This document shows positions 2,837-63,934 of a stretch of 64,000 nt of DNA, piece by piece. This DNA is from an uncultured Acidobacteriota bacterium. Lineage in GTDB: Bacteria; Acidobacteriota; Thermoanaerobaculia; Gp7-AA8. The notes beneath the pieces are model-generated. The model did not search any database, was not told the origin of the DNA, and saw nothing but the letters and a program-made list of their open reading frames with translations. Every line of letters starts with the position of its first letter. The first letter of the stretch is position 1. The position numbers and the translations under genes were made by a program. The stretch spans positions 1,376,001 through 1,440,000 of the forward strand of contig CAWGHO010000002.1 of assembly GCA_963822445.1 (NCBI GenBank). Direction: 5' to 3'.

Positions 2837-2947
2837 GTGCTGCGCACGCAAAATTGAAAATTGAAAATTGAGAATTGAAAATGATGATGAAATTACCGCA
2901 CAGTTTCAATTTTCAATTTTACATTTTCAATTTCATGCGCGCAGCGC
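2837..2947. repeat. Inverted heptamer-array hairpin (AAAATTG)n...(CAATTTT)n
   Basis: Left arm 2850-2880, right arm 2904-2933, closed by a GC outer stem; spacer between two tRNA-Ser genes. Confidence 0.85.
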
Positions 2948-20810: not shown

Positions 20811-20907
20811 CGAATGCAAAAGGCAGAATGCAGAATGCAGAAAAGTCCGGGATTGCGCACGGGCCGCGTTCTCTTTTCTGCATTTTGCATTCTGCATTCT
20901 GCATTCG
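20811..20907. repeat. Inverted heptamer-array hairpin (GAATGCA)n...(TGCATTC)n
   Basis: About four units per arm; between tRNA-Pro and tRNA-Arg. Confidence 0.88.
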
Positions 20908-29062: not shown

Positions 29063-29695
29063 ATGTCCGAAAACCCGCAGCGCCAGACGCTGCCGGAGCC
29101 ACAGACGCTGGCGCAGCTCCCGTTTCCCATCCTCGAGGAAGTGATCCGGCAGTTGCGCTCCACGCGCAACGACATCATCCGCTTCGGCGTCTGGAACATC
29201 CGCAATCTCAACGACGACGAATTCAACAAGACCGACGACCGCAAGCTCCTCGGCTACTTCCGCCAGGACCTGCTCGAGACCCGCTTCCTGTCCAAGGGCC
29301 GGCGCATCGATCTCATTCAGCTCTGGCACTGGTATGACGACCAGATGAGCGGCATCGAGCCGCTGCTGATCGACGGCCGGGAAGTCCTGCTCAACATCCA
29401 GGACAAAGACCTCGACAAGGTCCGCAAGCGCATCGCCGAGATCCAGTCCTTCTTCCCGAACCTGCGCGGCGACGATCTCGATGCCTTCCGCCGGGTCAAG
29501 TACAAGCTCCGCCGGACGGTGATGCGGCTGACCTACGACCTCCATCACCTCTTCAAACGGCTGGAGAAGTACCGGAAGAACCTCTACATCGGCAGCGGCG
29601 CGCCGCCGCGCCCCGAGCGGGAACGGGTCCCGCTCGAGGCCGTGGCCGAGATCCCCGAGCCGACACTCGTCGGGGACGACGGAATTGAGGATTGA
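29063..29695 (+). CDS. Hypothetical protein
   Basis: Strongly C/G-ending codons; helical, charged; no recognised motif; stop codon lies inside the repeat element. Confidence 0.75.
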   Translation: MSENPQRQTLPEPQTLAQLPFPILEEVIRQLRSTRNDIIRFGVWNIRNLNDDEFNKTDDRKLLGYFRQDLLETRFLSKGRRIDLIQLWHWYDDQMSGIEPLLIDGREVLLNIQDKDLDKVRKRIAEIQSFFPNLRGDDLDAFRRVKYKLRRTVMRLTYDLHHLFKRLEKYRKNLYIGSGAPPRPERERVPLEAVAEIPEPTLVGDDGIED

Positions 29696-29753
29696 GAATT
29701 GAGAATTGAGGATGAACCGAATCCTCAATCCTCAATCCTTCAATCCTCAATCC
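29681..29753. repeat. Inverted heptamer-array hairpin (GAGRATT)n...(AATCCTC)n
   Basis: Between convergent genes; about four units per arm, short loop. Confidence 0.85.
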
Positions 29754-29755
29754 GG

Positions 29756-32700
29756 TCAGACGTCGACGTCGATCACGCCGCCTTCCGTCACCACCACCGG
29801 CACCGACCTCACCACCGTCGTGTCGTTGTTGGTCAGCACCTGGATGGTGTAACTCCCCGGTGCCACGTGGTCGACGGGCAGCGTCGCCGGGCTGGCGGCG
29901 AGATCGCGGACCGGGTTCGGGTTCGTCGTTCGCGGGTACACGACGCCGCGCGCGTCGACGAGTCGAACGCGCTGGCGGTCCGATCGCGTGGAGTGCAACA
30001 TGATCTTGCCGCCGCGCGACAGCCCCACCGTCTGCGTGCCCGGTGAGGTGAGGTTGACCGTCACCGGCGCGTAATCCATCGACGTGACCGTGGCCACGTA
30101 CTCGCCCGGCGGAAGCGTGAGCTTGATGTCCGACGGCGACTCGCCGAAGCGCATGCCCGAGTCCTGCACGATGCGGCCGGCCTGGTCGAACACCCAGACG
30201 AACGCGTTGATGGCCTGGCCGTTCCGGGCATCGACCACCTTCAGCGTCACGCCGTCGTTCTTCGACAGCCTGAATTCGAGATCGGCCGGCTGCCGGTCGG
30301 TGATCACGAGCTCCTTCGGCTCCTGGGCGAAGCCGGTCTTGTCCGCGCTCACCGTGTACGTGCCCGGCGCGACGAAGTCGATCGTGAAATTGCCGTTGAC
30401 GTCCGTCGCCGCGCCCATCTCGCCGCGGAACGGCACATCGGTCGTCGTGGCGCGCAGGCGCACGCGGGCGTCGTTGATCGGATCGCCCGTGGCCGCGTCG
30501 ACCACCCGGCCGCGCAACGCGCTGGCGTTGTAATCGATGTCGAACGTGCTCGAGCCGCTCACGTCGTACGTCGTCTGGTAGGGGCTGAAGCGCTGCATGT
30601 CCATGACGAAGACCGAGTATTCGCCGGCTTCGAGACCGCTCACCGAGTAATTGCCCTGCTGGTCCGTCGTCGCCGAGCTCGAGGTCTGCGAGCTCGCACC
30701 GCGGCGCGGGGTGAAGCTCACGTTCGCGCTGGCCAGCGGCTTTCCGTTTCGCGTCACGCGGCCGGTGATGACCGTGTCCGAGCGGAACTCCAGATCGACC
30801 TGCCGCGATTCGCCGGCGGCAACGGTCACCGTCTGCGGCTGCGAGCTCTTGCGGGTCGAGAAGTTACGCGACACGACTCCGGCCACGCGAACCGTGCCGA
30901 TCGGCGCGCCTTCGAGCCGGTAATTGCCGGTGGAGTCGACCGACGTGCTCGCGAACGTCTCGCCCCGGAACTCCACCATCGCGCTCTGCAGCTCGTCCGG
31001 CGTGAGTCCGCGGACCTGGCCGTAGATCGTGGCGCCGCTCTTCATCACCAGCCGGACCGGCGCGCCCGCGCTGACGTCGACGTCATCGACGGTCGCTTCG
31101 GCGAATCCACGTTTGCTCGCCGAGAAACGGTAGCGAGCCGGCGACAGCGATTCGAAAGCGAACGTGCCATTCGCATCCGTCCTCGCGGTGCGGAACGCGC
31201 CCGCGCCGGCCATGGCCGCGACCTCGGCATCGGGAACCGGTGCGCCCGATTCCGTGACCACTACGCCGGTGATCCGCTGTCCGGCCGAGAGCTGGACGTC
31301 GAGACGCACCTCGGTGCCCTTGACGGTGATCTCCTTGCGCGTGCCGACGTACTTCTGATGTGAGAACTCGATGTTCGTGTCGGTCGGCTCGAGCGCGTCC
31401 AGCGTGTACTCGCCGTTCGAGTCGGTCACGGTGATCTTGCGCTCCATGCTGAACGTTCCGGAGCCCGATTGCGCCGCGACGCGCACCGTTGCGCCGCTGA
31501 GCGCCGCGCCATCCGGGCCGGTGACCTTGCCCACCAGCTTCGTGCCGGGATCGACCTCGATCTCGATCCCAGTGAGCGGCTTCCCTTCCTCCAGGGTCAG
31601 ATTCATGCGCGCCTGGGCGTAGCCGGGCGCGGTGGCGATGAGGTTCACCGCGCCGGTGGGGATGTTCTCCAGCGTGAACGTGCCGTCGTCACTGGTGAAT
31701 GCGCGCAGTTGCGGCGGGGCCATCATCACCATGCCGCCGCCGCCGCGGGAGACCGACACGCCGGCCTGGAAGGAAGGCAGCGGCTTGCGCGTCGCTTTGT
31801 CGATCACCCGTCCGCTCACGCGAGTGCCGGTCGGCAGCTCGATGAGCACGTCGCGGCCCGGCGCGGTGAGTGTGCGCATCTCCTGGATGAAGTCCGTTTC
31901 CTTGCGCATCGACGCCCGCAGCTCGCCGGGCGACAGACCGGAGAGCACGAACGAGCCATCGGGACCGGTCGTCGTAGTCGCGCCCGAGCCCATCTCCGAG
32001 AAAGTGTTGATCATCACGCCGTCCACGCCCACGCCGTTGCGGACGATGCGGCCGGTGATCTCGACGGCAGGTTCGAGCGATGCTTCGAGCGGCGCGTTCG
32101 AGGTCACCGTGATGGACTGACCGCGCAGCGTCTTCGCGGCGAACCCTTCGCGGCGGAACACGAAGTCGTACGTCCCTTCCTTCACGCGCAGGGTGAAGAG
32201 GCCGTCCGTGCCGGTCTTGACGTTGTCTTCCTCCGCTCCGGCTCCGCCGAGCATGACGATGTTGCGGATCATGCCGCCGCGCGGTCCGCCGGCGACTTCG
32301 TTCGCGGCGACGGTGACGCCCGACAGCGGATTGCCGTCGCGATCGGTCACCTTGCCGGTCACGGCGATGCCGCTGGGGATGGTGACCACGATGCCGGATT
32401 TGCGATCGCCCGGCGCGATGCGGAACGTGTCGCTCTTGGCCGGCGGCAGACCGCGGCGCGACGCTCTGACGCGCATGTCGCTGTCGCCCTGCACGCGCGT
32501 GCTGAAGCGGCCGTCGGGACCGGACACCGCGGTGCTGTCGCGCATCATCCGCATCGGCGACATCGAAAACGTCTCCGACCCACCAGCCTCCTCGGCCACG
32601 ACCGTCGCCGCGGCCACGGGCTTGCGGTCCTCGTTGACGACGGTGCCGCTCACGCGCGCCAGCGGGATGGCGGGCAGATCGCGCGATTGCGTCTGGCCGG

Positions 32701-33724
32701 CGCTCACGCTCAGGTCCGTCGGGCGCAGGTCATAAGCGGGATGGATGGCCGCGACCATGTACGCCCCTGGCGGCACGGTCATCGAGAAATTGCCCTTGGC
32801 GTCGGTGAAGGCCGCTGCCGTGGGCGCGCTCGTCATCCGCCCCATGCGCTGGCCGACCTGGATCGCCGCCCCGGGGACGGGCAACTTGGTCTTCGTGTCA
32901 GTCACGCGGCCGGTGAACGTGCCCGCTTTGGCCAGTTTCAGCGAGAGCGACTTCTCATTCGACTGCGCACGCATCGCGGCGAGCGATCCAATCTGCGCGG
33001 TCACCACCGACCATTTCGAAGGCGCGTGCGCGATGGTGAAGGACCCGTCGTCGCCGCTGACGGCCAGCGGCCATCCATCGACCATGACCGGCACTTTCGC
33101 GGCGGGGTTTCCGTCTGTGCCGAGGACTTTGCCGGTGATGGTTGTGCCGGGGGTGAGCGTGCGATTGAGCGCGCTCGCCGCGGCGGTGCTCATGAACATC
33201 TCCTCTTCGATCGCCCAGTCCGGATGAATGACGTTGATGGTCCGGGCGCGCCTCGGATCGGGCGCGTCGTACTTGCCCTGCTCGTCAGTCCTGGCGATGT
33301 ACTCCGCGCCGCCGTAGCTGATGACCACCGTCGCACCGGCGACAGGCTTTCCGCCGCCCTTGATCGTCCCGCTCTTCATCTCCGATTTCACCAGCACCAC
33401 CGCGCCGGTTTCCTCATCGCGCTCGATGCGCCGCTGCAGCGGATCGAATCCATTCGCGTTGATGCGGAGATCGACGACCGGTTCTTTCGGCGATTCGAGC
33501 GACCAGTTGCCGTTCTTGTCGGTCTGCGTCGAAAGGAGCGGCACCGAATGTGGCGAGGCGGACAGCCATCGCGCGCGCCGGGCGTCCGGCGTTTCGACGG
33601 CGTGAACGGAGACGCGCGCGTTCGCGATCGGCGCGCCGTCACTGGTCATGACCGTGCCGGTGATCGCGGCGAAACAGGGAACGGCGAGGAGAGCGAGCAG
33701 AACTGCAGCGGCTGTGCGGTGCAT
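29756..33724 (-). CDS. Large secreted protein of tandem carboxypeptidase-regulatory-like (prealbumin-fold) domains
   Basis: Signal peptide; more than ten repeats of ITG.V....G.P..GA.V....T..DG.F. Confidence 0.88.
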   Translation of the reverse strand: MHRTAAAVLLALLAVPCFAAITGTVMTSDGAPIANARVSVHAVETPDARRARWLSASPHSVPLLSTQTDKNGNWSLESPKEPVVDLRINANGFDPLQRRIERDEETGAVVLVKSEMKSGTIKGGGKPVAGATVVISYGGAEYIARTDEQGKYDAPDPRRARTINVIHPDWAIEEEMFMSTAAASALNRTLTPGTTITGKVLGTDGNPAAKVPVMVDGWPLAVSGDDGSFTIAHAPSKWSVVTAQIGSLAAMRAQSNEKSLSLKLAKAGTFTGRVTDTKTKLPVPGAAIQVGQRMGRMTSAPTAAAFTDAKGNFSMTVPPGAYMVAAIHPAYDLRPTDLSVSAGQTQSRDLPAIPLARVSGTVVNEDRKPVAAATVVAEEAGGSETFSMSPMRMMRDSTAVSGPDGRFSTRVQGDSDMRVRASRRGLPPAKSDTFRIAPGDRKSGIVVTIPSGIAVTGKVTDRDGNPLSGVTVAANEVAGGPRGGMIRNIVMLGGAGAEEDNVKTGTDGLFTLRVKEGTYDFVFRREGFAAKTLRGQSITVTSNAPLEASLEPAVEITGRIVRNGVGVDGVMINTFSEMGSGATTTTGPDGSFVLSGLSPGELRASMRKETDFIQEMRTLTAPGRDVLIELPTGTRVSGRVIDKATRKPLPSFQAGVSVSRGGGGMVMMAPPQLRAFTSDDGTFTLENIPTGAVNLIATAPGYAQARMNLTLEEGKPLTGIEIEVDPGTKLVGKVTGPDGAALSGATVRVAAQSGSGTFSMERKITVTDSNGEYTLDALEPTDTNIEFSHQKYVGTRKEITVKGTEVRLDVQLSAGQRITGVVVTESGAPVPDAEVAAMAGAGAFRTARTDANGTFAFESLSPARYRFSASKRGFAEATVDDVDVSAGAPVRLVMKSGATIYGQVRGLTPDELQSAMVEFRGETFASTSVDSTGNYRLEGAPIGTVRVAGVVSRNFSTRKSSQPQTVTVAAGESRQVDLEFRSDTVITGRVTRNGKPLASANVSFTPRRGASSQTSSSATTDQQGNYSVSGLEAGEYSVFVMDMQRFSPYQTTYDVSGSSTFDIDYNASALRGRVVDAATGDPINDARVRLRATTTDVPFRGEMGAATDVNGNFTIDFVAPGTYTVSADKTGFAQEPKELVITDRQPADLEFRLSKNDGVTLKVVDARNGQAINAFVWVFDQAGRIVQDSGMRFGESPSDIKLTLPPGEYVATVTSMDYAPVTVNLTSPGTQTVGLSRGGKIMLHSTRSDRQRVRLVDARGVVYPRTTNPNPVRDLAASPATLPVDHVAPGSYTIQVLTNNDTTVVRSVPVVVTEGGVIDVDV

Positions 33725-33772
33725 AGTGAAAAGTATGACGCTGCAATGCTCCTCCGGTTCCCGGTGTTCGAG

Positions 33773-33860
33773 GAATGCAGAATGCAGAATGCAGAATGCA
33801 GAAAACCGCCGCGCTCACGGCATAACCCCGTTCTGCATTCTGCATTCTGCATTCTGCATT
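33773..33860. repeat. Inverted heptamer-array hairpin (GAATGCA)4...(TTCTGCA)4
   Basis: Perfect units at 33773-33800 and 33831-33858. Confidence 0.92.
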
Positions 33861-34267
33861 TCCTTCTAATCCTCGGATGCGCCACGGACTCGATCGGAGG
33901 AGATGTGGAAATGCGCTCGCTCACCACCGGCTCGTACGCCGCCGCCCAGCCGGAGCAGCCCCAGGCCATTCAGATCGTCTCTGCCGGCGATTACGCGCGG
34001 ATCTGGGACGAGACCATCGGCAGCGGAGAGCGCCCGCAGGTCGACTTTGCTACGGAGTCGGTGGTCATCCTGCTGGCTGGTGCGAAACCCACCGGCGGCT
34101 GGAGCGTCGAGCCACGGGGCGTGCGCCTCGAAGGCCGCGTACTCGTCGTCGACGCGGTCGTGAACCGCCCGCCGTCCAATGCGATCGTCACCCAGGCCTT
34201 CACCTCGCCTTTCGCCGTGATCGCCGTCAAGACCAAGGCGCTGGACAGCGTCCGCTGGAATCCGTGA
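33782..34267 (+). CDS. Lipoprotein with PrcB C-terminal-like domain
   Basis: GAGGA 7 nt before ATG 33782; FLLILGC lipobox; VDFATESVVILLAGAKPTGGWSV...VTQAFTSPFAVI. Confidence 0.8.
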   Translation: MQNAECRKPPRSRHNPVLHSAFCILHFLLILGCATDSIGGDVEMRSLTTGSYAAAQPEQPQAIQIVSAGDYARIWDETIGSGERPQVDFATESVVILLAGAKPTGGWSVEPRGVRLEGRVLVVDAVVNRPPSNAIVTQAFTSPFAVIAVKTKALDSVRWNP

Positions 34268-35106
34268 GACGCCGCAAGCCGGTCACCGGTGCGCTGCTGA
34301 AGGCGCGGCTCGACACGCTGGTCGAGACCTTCGACGTCACGACCATCGAGCCCGATCCGCTGCAACTCGTCCTGCGCTACGACGATCCGCGCGACCAGGA
34401 AGTGGTGGGTCTGATTGCCGCCGCGTTTGCGTACGGCCGCGCGGACATCATCGTGAAGAACATCGGCGCCGTCCTCGACAAGATGACGCCGTCGCCGTAT
34501 CGCTATCTCCGCACCTTCAACGCGCGCGAAGCAACGAAACGCTTCGCCGGCTTCGCCCACCGCTTCCACAAAGCCCCGGACCTGGTCGCCTTCCTCGGCT
34601 GCATCGCCAAACATGAATCCCTCGGCGCTCTTTTCCAGGAGTGCTACGACGAACGCGATCCCGATATCGGCCCAGCTCTAACTCGCTTTGTCCACCGCCT
34701 ACTGCCTACCGCCAACCGCCTACCAGCCGTGAGCTACTTGCTCACGGCGCCTGAAGACGGTTCCGCCTGCAAACGCATGAACCTCTTCCTCCGCTGGATG
34801 GTCCGCCGCACCCCGCCCGACCTCGGCCTCTGGACCTTCGTCGATCCGGCCAAGCTGGTCATGCCCCTCGACACGCACATCCACCGCATCTCCACCTTCC
34901 TCGGATTGAGCGAGCGGAAAAGCGCGGACTGGAAAGCGGCGCGGGCGATCACCGACCGGCTGGCGGTCTTCGATGCGGCCGATCCGGTGCGCTACGACTT
35001 CGCCCTCTGCCGCCTTGGGATTCTCGATTTGTGCAGCCGGAAGCGCCACAAAGAGAACTGCGATGTCTGTTTGTTGAGAGACGTTTGCCGCTTTCCGGTG
35101 CTTTGA
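34264..35106 (+). CDS. TIGR02757 family (HhH-GPD-like) protein
   Basis: DPLQLV...EVVGLIAAAFAYG, SACKRMNLFLRWMVR, PLDTH, DPVRYDFAL, C-terminal Cys cluster. Confidence 0.9.
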   Translation: MRRRKPVTGALLKARLDTLVETFDVTTIEPDPLQLVLRYDDPRDQEVVGLIAAAFAYGRADIIVKNIGAVLDKMTPSPYRYLRTFNAREATKRFAGFAHRFHKAPDLVAFLGCIAKHESLGALFQECYDERDPDIGPALTRFVHRLLPTANRLPAVSYLLTAPEDGSACKRMNLFLRWMVRRTPPDLGLWTFVDPAKLVMPLDTHIHRISTFLGLSERKSADWKAARAITDRLAVFDAADPVRYDFALCRLGILDLCSRKRHKENCDVCLLRDVCRFPVL

Positions 35107-53086: not shown

Positions 53087-53106
53087 GGGCAGGGATCATA
53101 ACGTCA

Positions 53107-53182
53107 CGAGGTTGCGGGGTTTCGGGGTTACGGGGTTCGGATGTGCTTCCTCGGAACCCCGAAACCTCGTAACCTCGTAACC
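53107..53182. repeat. Inverted octamer-array hairpin (CGRGGTTN)n...(AACCYCGW)n
   Basis: Four degenerate units per arm; fills most of the divergent waaA/hflX gap. Confidence 0.85.
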
Positions 53183-54444: not shown

Positions 54445-54555
54445 CTGGGTTGCTGGGTTGCTGGGTTGCTAGGTTGCTGAGTGCTTCGCTGACAGGCATG
54501 ATCGTGCGTCCAGCGGAGCACCCAGCAACCCAGTAACCAAGCAACCCAGCAACCC
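54445..54555. repeat. Inverted octamer-array hairpin (CTGGGTTG)n...(CAACCCAG)n
   Basis: About four units per arm, between hflX and the GNAT gene. Confidence 0.88.
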
Positions 54556-55852: not shown

Positions 55853-55940
55853 AATGCAGAATGCAGAATGCAGAATGCAGAAAAGACACGGTCGCTCGTG
55901 CGATGCCGCGTTCTGCATTCTGCATTCTGCCTTCTGCCTT
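55853..55940. repeat. Inverted heptamer-array hairpin (AATGCAG)n...(TTCTGCM)n
   Basis: About four units per arm, between ccsA and hemA. Confidence 0.88.
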
Positions 55941-55960
55941 CCGACGCCGGAGGCGTCGTC

Positions 55961-63555: not shown

Positions 63556-63823
63556 GATCGCGATTATCGCCGCTCTCGCCGGATGCCGCGGGGAGCCGGT
63601 CCCTCGCGATTACCAGAACGCACCGCCGGCGATGACCCATCCGCCCGACAACAAAGCGCAGTCGCCTGCCCAGCACGGGATGGGAGAGGCGACTCCGGAG
63701 ACGTCGTCGGGTGCGGAAGGACCGTCATCGACGGGCCAGCCGATTACGCCGTCGGCGACGGGAACGACCGCGACGTCATCGACGAGCGTGCAGAACACGC
63801 CGCCGGTCTCCACTACGACGTAG
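63539..63823 (+). CDS. Small Thr/Ser/Pro-rich lipoprotein
   Basis: MKRLVMIAIIAALAGC lipobox; AGGA upstream. Confidence 0.75.
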   Translation: MKRLVMIAIIAALAGCRGEPVPRDYQNAPPAMTHPPDNKAQSPAQHGMGEATPETSSGAEGPSSTGQPITPSATGTTATSSTSVQNTPPVSTTT

Positions 63824-63928
63824 TCGTTAGTGGTTAGTGATTAGTCGTTAGTAGGCCGCCGCCCGTCCACGTTAGTAGACTCCGCGCGCTTCTAACTACT
63901 AACGACTAATCACTAACCACTAACGACT
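63822..63928. repeat. Inverted heptamer-array hairpin (TAGTSRT)n...(AYSACTA)n
   Basis: 33-bp perfect inverted repeat, 63822-63854 and 63896-63928. Confidence 0.92.
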
Positions 63929-63934
63929 GATCCA

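Follow-up and report, generated by a model that had tools for sequence, protein, structure and literature searches.

In Neisseria, tandem CTCTT repeats lie in the leader-peptide coding region of the opa genes and encode its hydrophobic core; phase variation of the opa type relies on a long hypermutable tract, typically of at least six units, with one ON frame. Repetitive extragenic palindromic (REP) sequences and REPINs, which are mobilised by RAYTs, are abundant short palindromes found mostly just past stop codons. Rickettsia palindromic elements (RPEs) form a short palindromic family with many in-frame copies within protein genes (PMC10969869), and palindromic amphipathic repeat coding elements (PARCELs) have been described as a further type (PMC2996958). 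In Xanthomonas, convergent pairs of GGGAATC heptamers number 70-75 per genome, are mostly intergenic and often lie 0-50 bp from, or overlap, start or stop codons (Rehm et al. 2015, PMC4692102). Here we analyse a 64,000-nt stretch of DNA, called the window in the following (G000:C2:1376001-1440000), from the genome G000 of an uncultured Acidobacteriota bacterium of the Thermoanaerobaculia (6.0 Mb, 3 contigs, 64.5% G+C). In this window, a hairpin of tandem 7-mers stands at the 5' end of a gene for a PrcB_C-domain protein, where it took the place of the native start and probably encodes the lipoprotein signal peptide.

The closest analogues of this locus are the RPEs as coding palindromes, the GGGAATC pairs in architecture and the opa CTCTT tracts as leader repeats. 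With opa, the PrcB_C hairpin shares tandem units that are not a multiple of three within signal-peptide coding sequence; opa tracts, however, are long hypermutable direct repeats with one ON frame, whereas the PrcB_C repeat is a palindrome of about four units per arm in which two of three frames are open. REPINs resemble the G000 hairpins in abundance, shortness and position behind stop codons, but have a family-specific spacer and a head motif, whereas the arms in G000 are built from 7-8-mers in tandem, with about 40 types of unit, around unrelated spacers. RPEs are, like the PrcB_C hairpin, in-frame coding palindromes that yield a conserved peptide in an apparently functional host protein (PMC10969869), and here, too, in-frame copies occur in eight unrelated G000 genes, with orthologous cases in four of five relatives. 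RPEs differ in being about 150 bp long, in lacking tandem 7-mers and in being reported from internal positions of metabolic genes without specificity for signal peptides; the G000 copies have tandem units around a unique spacer, stand at the very 5' end of genes for envelope proteins and, in PrcB_C, have replaced the native start. The GGGAATC repeats are likewise tandem heptamer tracts in inverted pairs, but they are G-rich, are discussed as quadruplex formers and have an unrelated unit, and no signal-peptide frame is reported in the portion of that paper available to us (PMC4692102). PARCELs are also palindromic repeat DNA read as protein, but are described as intragenic tandem repeat domains of surface proteins and not as signal-peptide hairpins (PMC2996958). 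A search of the full-text literature, supplements aside, turned up no account of tandem-unit hairpins in Thermoanaerobaculia and none of palindromic repeats encoding signal peptides.

Results

The hairpin is in frame with the lipobox of a PrcB_C protein

The hairpin at 33774-33860 is perfect (30+27+30 nt), with arms that are 100% complementary and that each consist of 4.3-4.4 tandem 7-mers, the unit of the left arm being AATGCAG and that of the right arm TTCTGCA (Table 1). A 21-mer of the AATGCAG unit matched 13 times in the window with up to two mismatches, and none of 100 shuffles gave any match. The left arm contains ATGs at 33775, 33782, 33789 and 33796, of which ATG 33782 shares its frame with the PrcB_C open reading frame (ORF) ending at 34267; the translation is MQNAECRKPPRSRHNPVLHSAFCILHFLLILGC. 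From 33785 to the Cys codon at 33878-33880, this frame contains neither ATG nor GTG nor TTG, and two additional in-frame starts, ATG 33746 and GTG 33764, lie 5' of the left arm. A preliminary description of this stretch had given the positions of the hairpin, its ATGs, a GAGGA motif, a TAA and the lipobox, and had stated that no in-frame start separates the left arm from the lipobox; both statements were confirmed by reading the sequence directly. The frame remains open further upstream, back to 31469, antisense to the neighbouring 1322-aa gene, and this long upstream frame is without meaning. The Pfam match to PrcB_C (PF14343) covers residues 94-150 and scores 45.6 bits, the gathering cutoff being 24.

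The peptide encoded by the hairpin carries a net charge of +3 in its first 17 residues, and its best 10-residue Kyte-Doolittle hydropathy is 2.91, compared with 2.52-3.15 in native signals. Lipoprotein rules of the PROSITE type ask for a basic n-region, a hydrophobic h-region and a Cys about 15-35 residues from the start. Counted from ATG 33782, the peptide follows this rule with its Cys at residue 33; counted from ATG 33746, the Cys is residue 45. A Pfam search with the N-terminal 50-65 residues of four hairpin-encoded signals returned no family and was uninformative.

The hairpin segment replaced the native start

The N-termini of orthologues, which the preliminary description had proposed for comparison, bear on the origin of this arrangement. 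Every full-length PrcB_C orthologue that we saw is a lipoprotein whose Cys aligns with that of G000, with a signal of about 10-18 residues ending at the aligned Cys, such as MRAALALLFLTC, MRAAFALLFLTC and MKSLLLAVALASSC. The Cys is invariant in our alignment (A1), and LILGC of G000 stands at the lipobox position of the orthologues, the general lipobox pattern being [LVI][ASTVI..][GAS]C. Same-genus and same-order loci with their 5' end on the contig, as well as the inspected metagenome loci of the Joint Genome Institute (JGI), all begin with a short lipoprotein signal, and the hairpin is absent from these loci. The short intergenic region upstream of PrcB_C is conserved as DNA among orthologues, in which the native ATG follows a CTGTTG/C motif after 8-9 nt (about 15 nt in some); in G000, the left arm begins exactly there.

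A hairpin-less allele was found among Logan contigs of relatives, from four runs aligned at 80% likeness; no public run contains more than 17% of the sampled words of the stretch. One 733-nt contig of run X1, from a relative about 90-93% identical, differs from G000 in 14 of 211 letters to the left and in 34 of 338 to the right. Between 33768 and 33869, this contig has 40 other letters and no hairpin. These letters read CGG CCG CCG ATG AGA GCC GTC CTC GCC ATC GCC TTC TGC, followed by ATC CTC GGA TGC, and encode the peptide MRAVLAIAFC-ILGC, whose ATG and nine codons have no counterpart in G000. A second contig (1618 nt, run X4) bridges 33731 to 33869 with 77 letters. Measured against the X1 allele, the hairpin segment has replaced the native ATG, the nine codons and the end of the 5' untranslated region (5'UTR) in G000, 100 nt for 40. 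The net gain of 60 nt preserves the frame of ATG 33746 and GTG 33764. Among 27 listed differences between G000 and the relatives' contigs in the mature part (82 more lie outside this list), 20 fall on third, five on first and two on second codon positions, a third-position bias that points to purifying selection on the PrcB_C protein. We also considered whether the spacer is native 5' coding sequence bracketed by added arms. This was rejected: when 160 spacers were ranked by local alignment to the native 21 letters, it came 152nd, and 90% of 27-mers drawn at random from the genome align equally well.

Comparison of these sequences makes it probable, in our view, that the hairpin, having replaced the native start, supplies the PrcB_C signal peptide. 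An 87-nt palindrome of the AATGCAG family, together with 13 flanking letters, took the place of the 5'UTR end, the ATG and the nine codons. Since no stop interrupts the frame from the region 5' of the hairpin down to the conserved lipobox, the spacer and the right arm are quite likely translated as part of the signal, the spacer as a basic n-region, KPPRSRHNP, and the right arm as a hydrophobic core, LHSAFCILHF, which runs on into LLILGC, the part of the native signal that is left. Initiation would have to take place within the left arm or 5' of it, in the same frame, namely at ATG 33782, GTG 33764 or ATG 33746, and Lgt and LspA would cut the extension off, leaving the same mature lipoprotein as in the relatives. 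All of this evidence is comparative and computational. It establishes the anatomy of the locus, the replacement, the open frame, the conservation of the hairpin and the recurrence of the design, whereas translation of the hairpin, export, lipidation and the choice of start codon are predictions. That a repeat was exapted into coding sequence as a signal peptide, as the preliminary description had proposed, is supported by the lipoboxes of the orthologues, by the hairpin-less allele and, as described below, by the proteins P0001 and P0006 and by seven other genes.

Related PrcB_C proteins carry hairpin-derived N-termini

A search across 5.8 billion proteins returned 66 relatives, from which a tree of 67 rows was made. 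P0006 (160 aa, 67-68% identical) begins with MQNAKCKKVRRSWRDPFLHSAFCILHLLFLSC, and as far as peptide sequences can tell, its N-terminus and that of P0001 (153 aa, 83-86% identical) plainly correspond to a translated left arm, spacer and right arm. Because their spacer peptides, RRSWRDPF in P0006 and RRQFWRDPF in P0001, are homologous to PRSRHNPVLH of G000 with the frame kept, the hairpin allele appears to have persisted in frame over considerable divergence; this persistence and the third-position bias are indirect signs that the host protein still functions. A metagenome scan gave relatives of no more than 63% identity and, in addition, one fragment at 71% whose 5' end is missing. P0002 (88-92% identical) has the native signal MRAALAIAFCILGC. 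AFCIL or VFCIL also occurs in P0003, P0005, P0010 and P0013, P0010 having AFCLLAFCILGC; in the X1 contig, AFCIL is coded by GCC TTC TGC ATC CTC, that is, by one TTCTGCA unit. In the tree, all hairpin and AFCIL rows fall into one weakly supported clade of 17 rows, within which the three hairpin rows are scattered. The starred branches force at least two changes, and the tree is compatible both with one origin of the PrcB hairpin followed by recombination or losses and with repeated origins.

The same design recurs in genes for envelope proteins

Eight of the 31 AATGCAG-type copies in G000, the PrcB_C copy included, are read in frame into a called gene, and in these eight there is no other start or hydrophobic segment before the signal-peptidase or lipobox site. 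According to Pfam, the genes encode PrcB_C, DUF5777 beta-barrel, BatD, SBP_bac_1 (SBP in the following), TPR, sulfatase+TPR, cytochrome c and HlyD/CusB proteins, all of which are predicted envelope proteins. Copies judged by eye to lie upstream of genes for cytosolic proteins stop short of the start codon.

Orthologues were sought in five relatives (G048, G018, G011, G016 and G042). The same design was found in four of them (G018, G042, G048 and G011), as AATGCAG, AACGCAG or AAGGCAG hairpins or as a solo right arm, in the genes for SBP, cytochrome c, DUF5777, BatD and TPR; the four of these genes that were found in G016 all have plain signals. The SBP hairpin occupies the same place in all four relatives with a match. 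Its frame is open from the ATG of the first unit to the Cys just past the right arm, the hairpins fold at -51 to -73 kcal/mol, and the spacers of G018 and G048 are homologous (NSELR vs NDELR). The SBP unit is AATGCAG in G000 and G018, AACGCAG in G048 and AAGGCAG in G042 and G011. The third unit position (L108-L111 compared with L103) is thus T, C or G by species, and the change appears to be concerted across all units and both arms.

In the cytochrome c gene, G016 has the plain signal MSRGKRLALVLLLVSAAAC; G042, G048 and G000 have the hairpin in frame after a native M-x-R-G, and G018 has right-arm units only (MSRGRFFCLLLSAFCLLPSFGC). For DUF5777, BatD and TPR, the signals are native in G016, contain a solo right arm in G011 and full hairpins in G018 and G042; in G048, BatD has a full hairpin, TPR a native signal and DUF5777 a closed frame that reaches back into right-arm units. 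Altogether, the frame is open in 13 of the 14 orthologous full hairpins, the G048 DUF5777 gene being the exception. This locus (L125) gave two overlapping matches, with the frame upstream of the mature part closed 20 codons back, in the hairpin region; the cause is either a frameshift in the gene or misassembly at the repeat. Four of the five genes have their start codon immediately 5' of the stem, and SBP has it at the stem base. No hairpin was seen in the sulfatase orthologues of the three relatives examined, which have native signals; no HlyD orthologue was found at E 1e-30 in the five relatives, and the exact AATGCAG hairpin was found in none of 34 other genomes of the genus, many of which are fragmented assemblies.

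Two features of these loci may be added. The solo right arms (L121, L126 and L131 in G011, L115 in G018) form the hydrophobic core of the signal peptide as (TTCTGCC)n, read as LLLSAFCLLPSAF, without a left arm; they lie at sites that bear full hairpins in other species and may be precursors or remnants. The G000 cytochrome c hairpin (L106 293-383) has a left arm (GAATGCA)4 and a right arm (TTTTGCA)5, whose stem holds via G.U pairs on the sense RNA only; as DNA the arms would mismatch, and genome-wide there is no such G.U bias.

Start codons and rival explanations

The RNA of 33755-33925 is predicted to fold at -83.7 kcal/mol (z -7.9), and the hairpin alone at -55.9 kcal/mol; in the RNA fold, GAGGA pairs with UCCUC at 33870-33874. 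The equilibrium probability of being unpaired is 0.001 for ATG 33782 and 0.57 for ATG 33911 (values for the other sites are listed in Table 1). The preliminary description had taken ATG 33782 as the start. It does lie in frame behind GAGGA, yet it is one of three options that would all yield the same mature lipoprotein, and burial in the stem disfavours it. Because both the ATG and its Shine-Dalgarno (SD) sequence are paired, initiation there would need co-transcriptional loading of ribosomes before the right arm is made, or active unwinding, and we regard ATG 33782 as a possible but doubtful start. Most genes of this genome do without an SD: of 1093 well-bounded ATG starts, 31% have a 4-mer SD core upstream, against 11% in a control window.

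Translation could instead begin at ATG 33746 or GTG 33764, as it perhaps does in relatives lacking the hairpin too, with the hairpin as an in-frame insertion read through by elongating ribosomes, a sub-case of the signal-peptide reading that nevertheless contradicts a start in the left arm. ATG 33746 is mostly unpaired, its frame was kept by the net gain of 60 nt, and P0003, P0005 and P0010 are called from what is, by peptide similarity, its apparent equivalent (M[LP]xxFPLLR...); moreover, the cytochrome c, DUF5777, TPR and BatD genes have a native start just 5' of the stem, with the hairpin read through. Against it, ATG 33746 has no SD (as is the case for all but 31% of genome starts), its signal would be 45 aa long, and more distant orthologues have no ATG there. 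It also lies 22 nt from the divergent start codon, within the spacer of the promoter motif of the divergent gene, so that a transcript covering it would need a promoter within the neighbouring gene. We consider this option rather unlikely. Several observations count against a hairpin-encoded signal as such: ATG 33782 and GAGGA are buried in the stem, ATG 33746 lacks an SD and would place the Cys at a residue that is late for a lipoprotein signal, an open frame through a spacer of about 10 codons is not rare by chance, and 13 open frames among 14 are, by our own rough estimate, only modestly significant. The recognisable hairpin alleles are in addition a sample biased to open frames: only caller-extended ones are visible, so that broken alleles would hide among short calls. 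A rival explanation is an insertion that destroyed the signal, with translation from ATG 33911 or GTG 33905 into a cytoplasmic, non-lipidated PrcB_C protein of 118-120 aa, or, as a variant of the same idea, a recently disabled and still undecayed gene whose hairpin is merely 5'UTR. GGAGGAG (33897-33903) stands 7 nt before ATG 33911, this ATG is far less paired than ATG 33782, the codon-usage score is maximal from 33905, and 32 of the 67 database rows are short calls (at most 125 aa), which for the most part start no more than two residues from the aligned internal Met. Yet all full-length orthologues seen are lipoproteins; in place of the internal Met, P0005, P0006, P0008 and P0020 have Leu, and many orthologues have Leu, Ile or Val. 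The GGAGG derives from conserved Gly-Gly codons and is present also in orthologues with native signals. P0002, with which the short call P0004 is identical over the matching part, carries a complete native signal, so that the short calls reflect at least in part a preference of the gene caller for this GGAGG. Open-frame hairpin alleles persist, furthermore, in lineages only 67-86% identical, and the same design is kept in five other exported-protein genes that have no downstream start or signal. Taken jointly, a destroyed signal or a disabled gene is in our judgement unlikely.

The preliminary description had also seen ON/OFF potential in the hairpin. In this explanation, the 7-nt units form a contingency locus in which slippage of the right arm toggles the lipoprotein, as with the opa leader-peptide repeats. 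The unit is not a multiple of three and lies between start and lipobox, unit numbers vary among copies (3.6-5.4) and among orthologous hairpins, and the arithmetic for gain or loss of one right-arm unit proved right: TAA 33823-33825 closes the frame of ATGs 33775 and 33796, into which loss of one unit would move the gene, and the frame of ATG 33789 is open across spacer and right arm until TAA 33867-33869 (ORF 33648..33869). However, there are only about four units per arm, compared with the long tracts of the opa type, and gain of one unit stays ON via ATG 33789, leaving two of three frames open. The number of units is 4.3-4.4 in 24 of 31 left arms, and the open frames of orthologous hairpins that differ in unit number point to selection for ON; the contigs from the four runs, which are contigs of relatives and not reads of the strain, contained no unit-number variant. 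Of the proposed switch, the calculation for a one-unit loss thus stands, but no observation supports switching, and it is very improbable that the PrcB_C hairpin is a dedicated phase switch.

Local context of the PrcB_C gene

The features of the locus are collected in Table 1. The divergent arrangement with the CarboxypepD_reg gene is kept in relatives, and the letters GTTCC...GACG (GGAAC-N16-CGTC on the - strand) are conserved in the orthologous intergenic regions, 13 nt upstream of ATG 33724. By its consensus, this motif is a putative extracytoplasmic function (ECF)-sigma-type promoter of the CarboxypepD_reg gene, which would have an almost leaderless transcript. A sigma-70 promoter scan of the locus found nothing. 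A terminator scan returned a single terminator-like site, a small stem within the spacer on the minus strand, and Rfam gave only a sub-threshold match to a plant microRNA precursor (37.3 bits vs a gathering score of 74), which was dismissed as a generic long-hairpin artefact. Across orthologues, the GGAGG of the conserved Gly-Gly codons lies a few codons past the lipobox and is followed by V-E-(M/L).

Table 1 Features at the hairpin locus, in positions of the window
Feature	Position	Strand	Remarks
Divergent gene, 1322-aa secreted protein with CarboxypepD_reg repeats	29756..33724	-	ORF; Pfam PF13620 2.2e-124
GGAAC-N16-CGTC motif, 12 nt from left arm	33737..33761	-	Intact in G000
In-frame ATG 5' of stem; would give a 45-aa signal peptide	33746..33748	+	Probability unpaired 0.87
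In-frame GTG directly 5' of left arm	33764..33766	+	Paired in extended stem, probability unpaired 0.007
100-nt segment, replacement of 40 native letters	33769..33868	+	Comparison with hairpin-less contig
GAGGA, Shine-Dalgarno-like, 7 nt 5' of ATG 33782, within inserted segment	33770..33774	+	Probability unpaired 0.002
Left arm (AATGCAG)x4.3	33774..33803	+	ATG 33782 in frame
Unique 27-nt spacer, in-frame KPPRSRHNP as putative basic n-region	33804..33830	+	
Right arm (TTCTGCA)x4.3, in-frame (V)LHSAFCILH as most of putative h-region	33831..33860	+	
Native lipobox codons ATC CTC GGA TGC (I-L-G-C)	33869..33880	+	
Mature PrcB_C-domain protein and stop	33881..34267	+	Pfam PF14343 8.4e-12
GGAGGAG (Gly-Gly-Asp codons), GTG 33905, ATG 33911; rival internal start	33897..33913	+	
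DUF2400 gene	34264..35106	+	PF09674 3.9e-67; start GTG overlaps PrcB_C stop (GTGA, 34264-67)

The hairpin belongs to a genome-wide class of repeats

To count the hairpins in G000, arrays with a period of 6-9 from Tandem Repeats Finder were paired with inverted partners no more than 200 nt away. This census gave 235 hairpins of 40 unit types; the 31 copies of AATGCAG, AAGGCAG or AAAATGC type have nearly identical arms and unrelated spacers of 10-47 nt. Relative to 5117 genes called by a crude codon-usage method, 160 hairpins separate tandem genes, 28 separate convergent and 41 divergent genes, the PrcB_C copy being one of the latter, and six are inside genes. The 188 tandem and convergent hairpins typically begin -2 to +7 nt from the upstream stop codon, and in the AATGCAG family near gene ends this stop is often the TGA of TGAATGCAG. 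Judging by this placement, the hairpins may be targeted to gene ends, be selected for there or take part in translational coupling. We considered selection acting on them as RNA and rejected it, with 127 G.U and 148 A.C mismatches on the sense strand of the 160 tandem-gene hairpins (p = 0.23). Because the mismatches show no preference for G.U on the sense strand, complementarity of the arms looks to be maintained at the DNA level, as in a selfish or template-switch-homogenised palindrome and unlike an RNA structure under selection.

Seven further hairpins lie in the window (2850-2933, 20812-20906, 29682-29753, 53106-53182, 54445-54555, 55853-55941 and 63821-63932), with the units AAAATTG, GAATGCA, GAATTGA/AATCCTC, the 8-mers ACGGGGTT and CTGGGTTG, AATGCAG and TAGTCGT; those at 20812 and 55853 belong to the AATGCAG family. 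Elsewhere in G000, several AATGCAG copies (C2:145946, C3:1411975 and C3:1700487) have a variant unit in both arms, AATGCAA on the left and TTTTGCA on the right. The variant letters pair only when the arms are slid by one unit from the outermost register, apparently a subfamily signature that a simple palindrome would not explain. Hairpins of other families lie with open frame deep in called genes at C2:821007-821090, C3:1109141-1109241 and C2:2261574-2261657, where the called starts are 1827, 1025 and 496 nt upstream of the hairpin end; these three resemble the internal insertions of RPEs. Two more, with ACTCTGCG and AATCATC units (C3:1591135-1591232 and C2:1183548-1183615, both on the - strand), are immediately followed by a lipoprotein-like h-region and a Cys, and no start intervenes (…RLGAAALLILLTTAC; …KRLLALLFVATLFC).

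Discussion

A 7-mer repeat is read through all three frames in turn and gives the same cyclic heptapeptide whatever the frame. AATGCAG yields NAECRMQ and its complement LHSAFCI, with no stop in any frame of either arm; AAGGCAG yields KAEGRRQ and LPSAFCL. Unit types that are open on both arms make up 90 of the 235 hairpins, and among these 90 only the AATGCAG group pairs a Met-containing, basic arm with a strongly hydrophobic one. The purine-rich arm would thus encode a polar or basic stretch with Met and its complement a hydrophobic one, and because the element is a palindrome and its unit stop-free, a polar stretch followed by a hydrophobic one would result whatever the frame or orientation. 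This polar-hydrophobic layout is all that a signal peptide, which is removed after export, requires, and for this reason copies may be tolerated, and in effect recruited, only in the signal-peptide niche. We infer that an order independent of the individual copy explains the tolerance of these hairpins in signal peptides.

A more far-reaching proposal, which we put forward as speculative and regard as unlikely, is that AANGCAG palindromes are a self-propagating signal-peptide cassette that also places exported proteins under shared post-transcriptional control by the stem. In either orientation and any frame, each copy would bring start codons together with a run of polar or basic residues and, after it, a hydrophobic run, and copies would repeatedly have extended or replaced the signals of envelope proteins across a genus of the Thermoanaerobaculia. 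Solo arms and footprints of one or two units, such as AFCIL, would be intermediates, and a 30-bp stem over the start might make synthesis dependent on unwinding by coupled ribosomes, a helicase or temperature.

The PrcB_C lipoprotein family is widely annotated without its signal, nearly half of the database entries starting at or near the internal Met, and exported proteins of these Acidobacteriota are probably under-annotated, as gene callers start at an internal Met. If the hairpin is translated, a selfish-looking repeat would have supplied a working export signal to eight or more genes in a single genome, and would have done so in several species. The rule suggested by these loci is simple: whatever the frame or orientation, a purine-rich arm and the arm complementary to it give a polar stretch and then a hydrophobic one. 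If true, this would be a concrete and testable case of non-coding repeat DNA becoming functional coding sequence.

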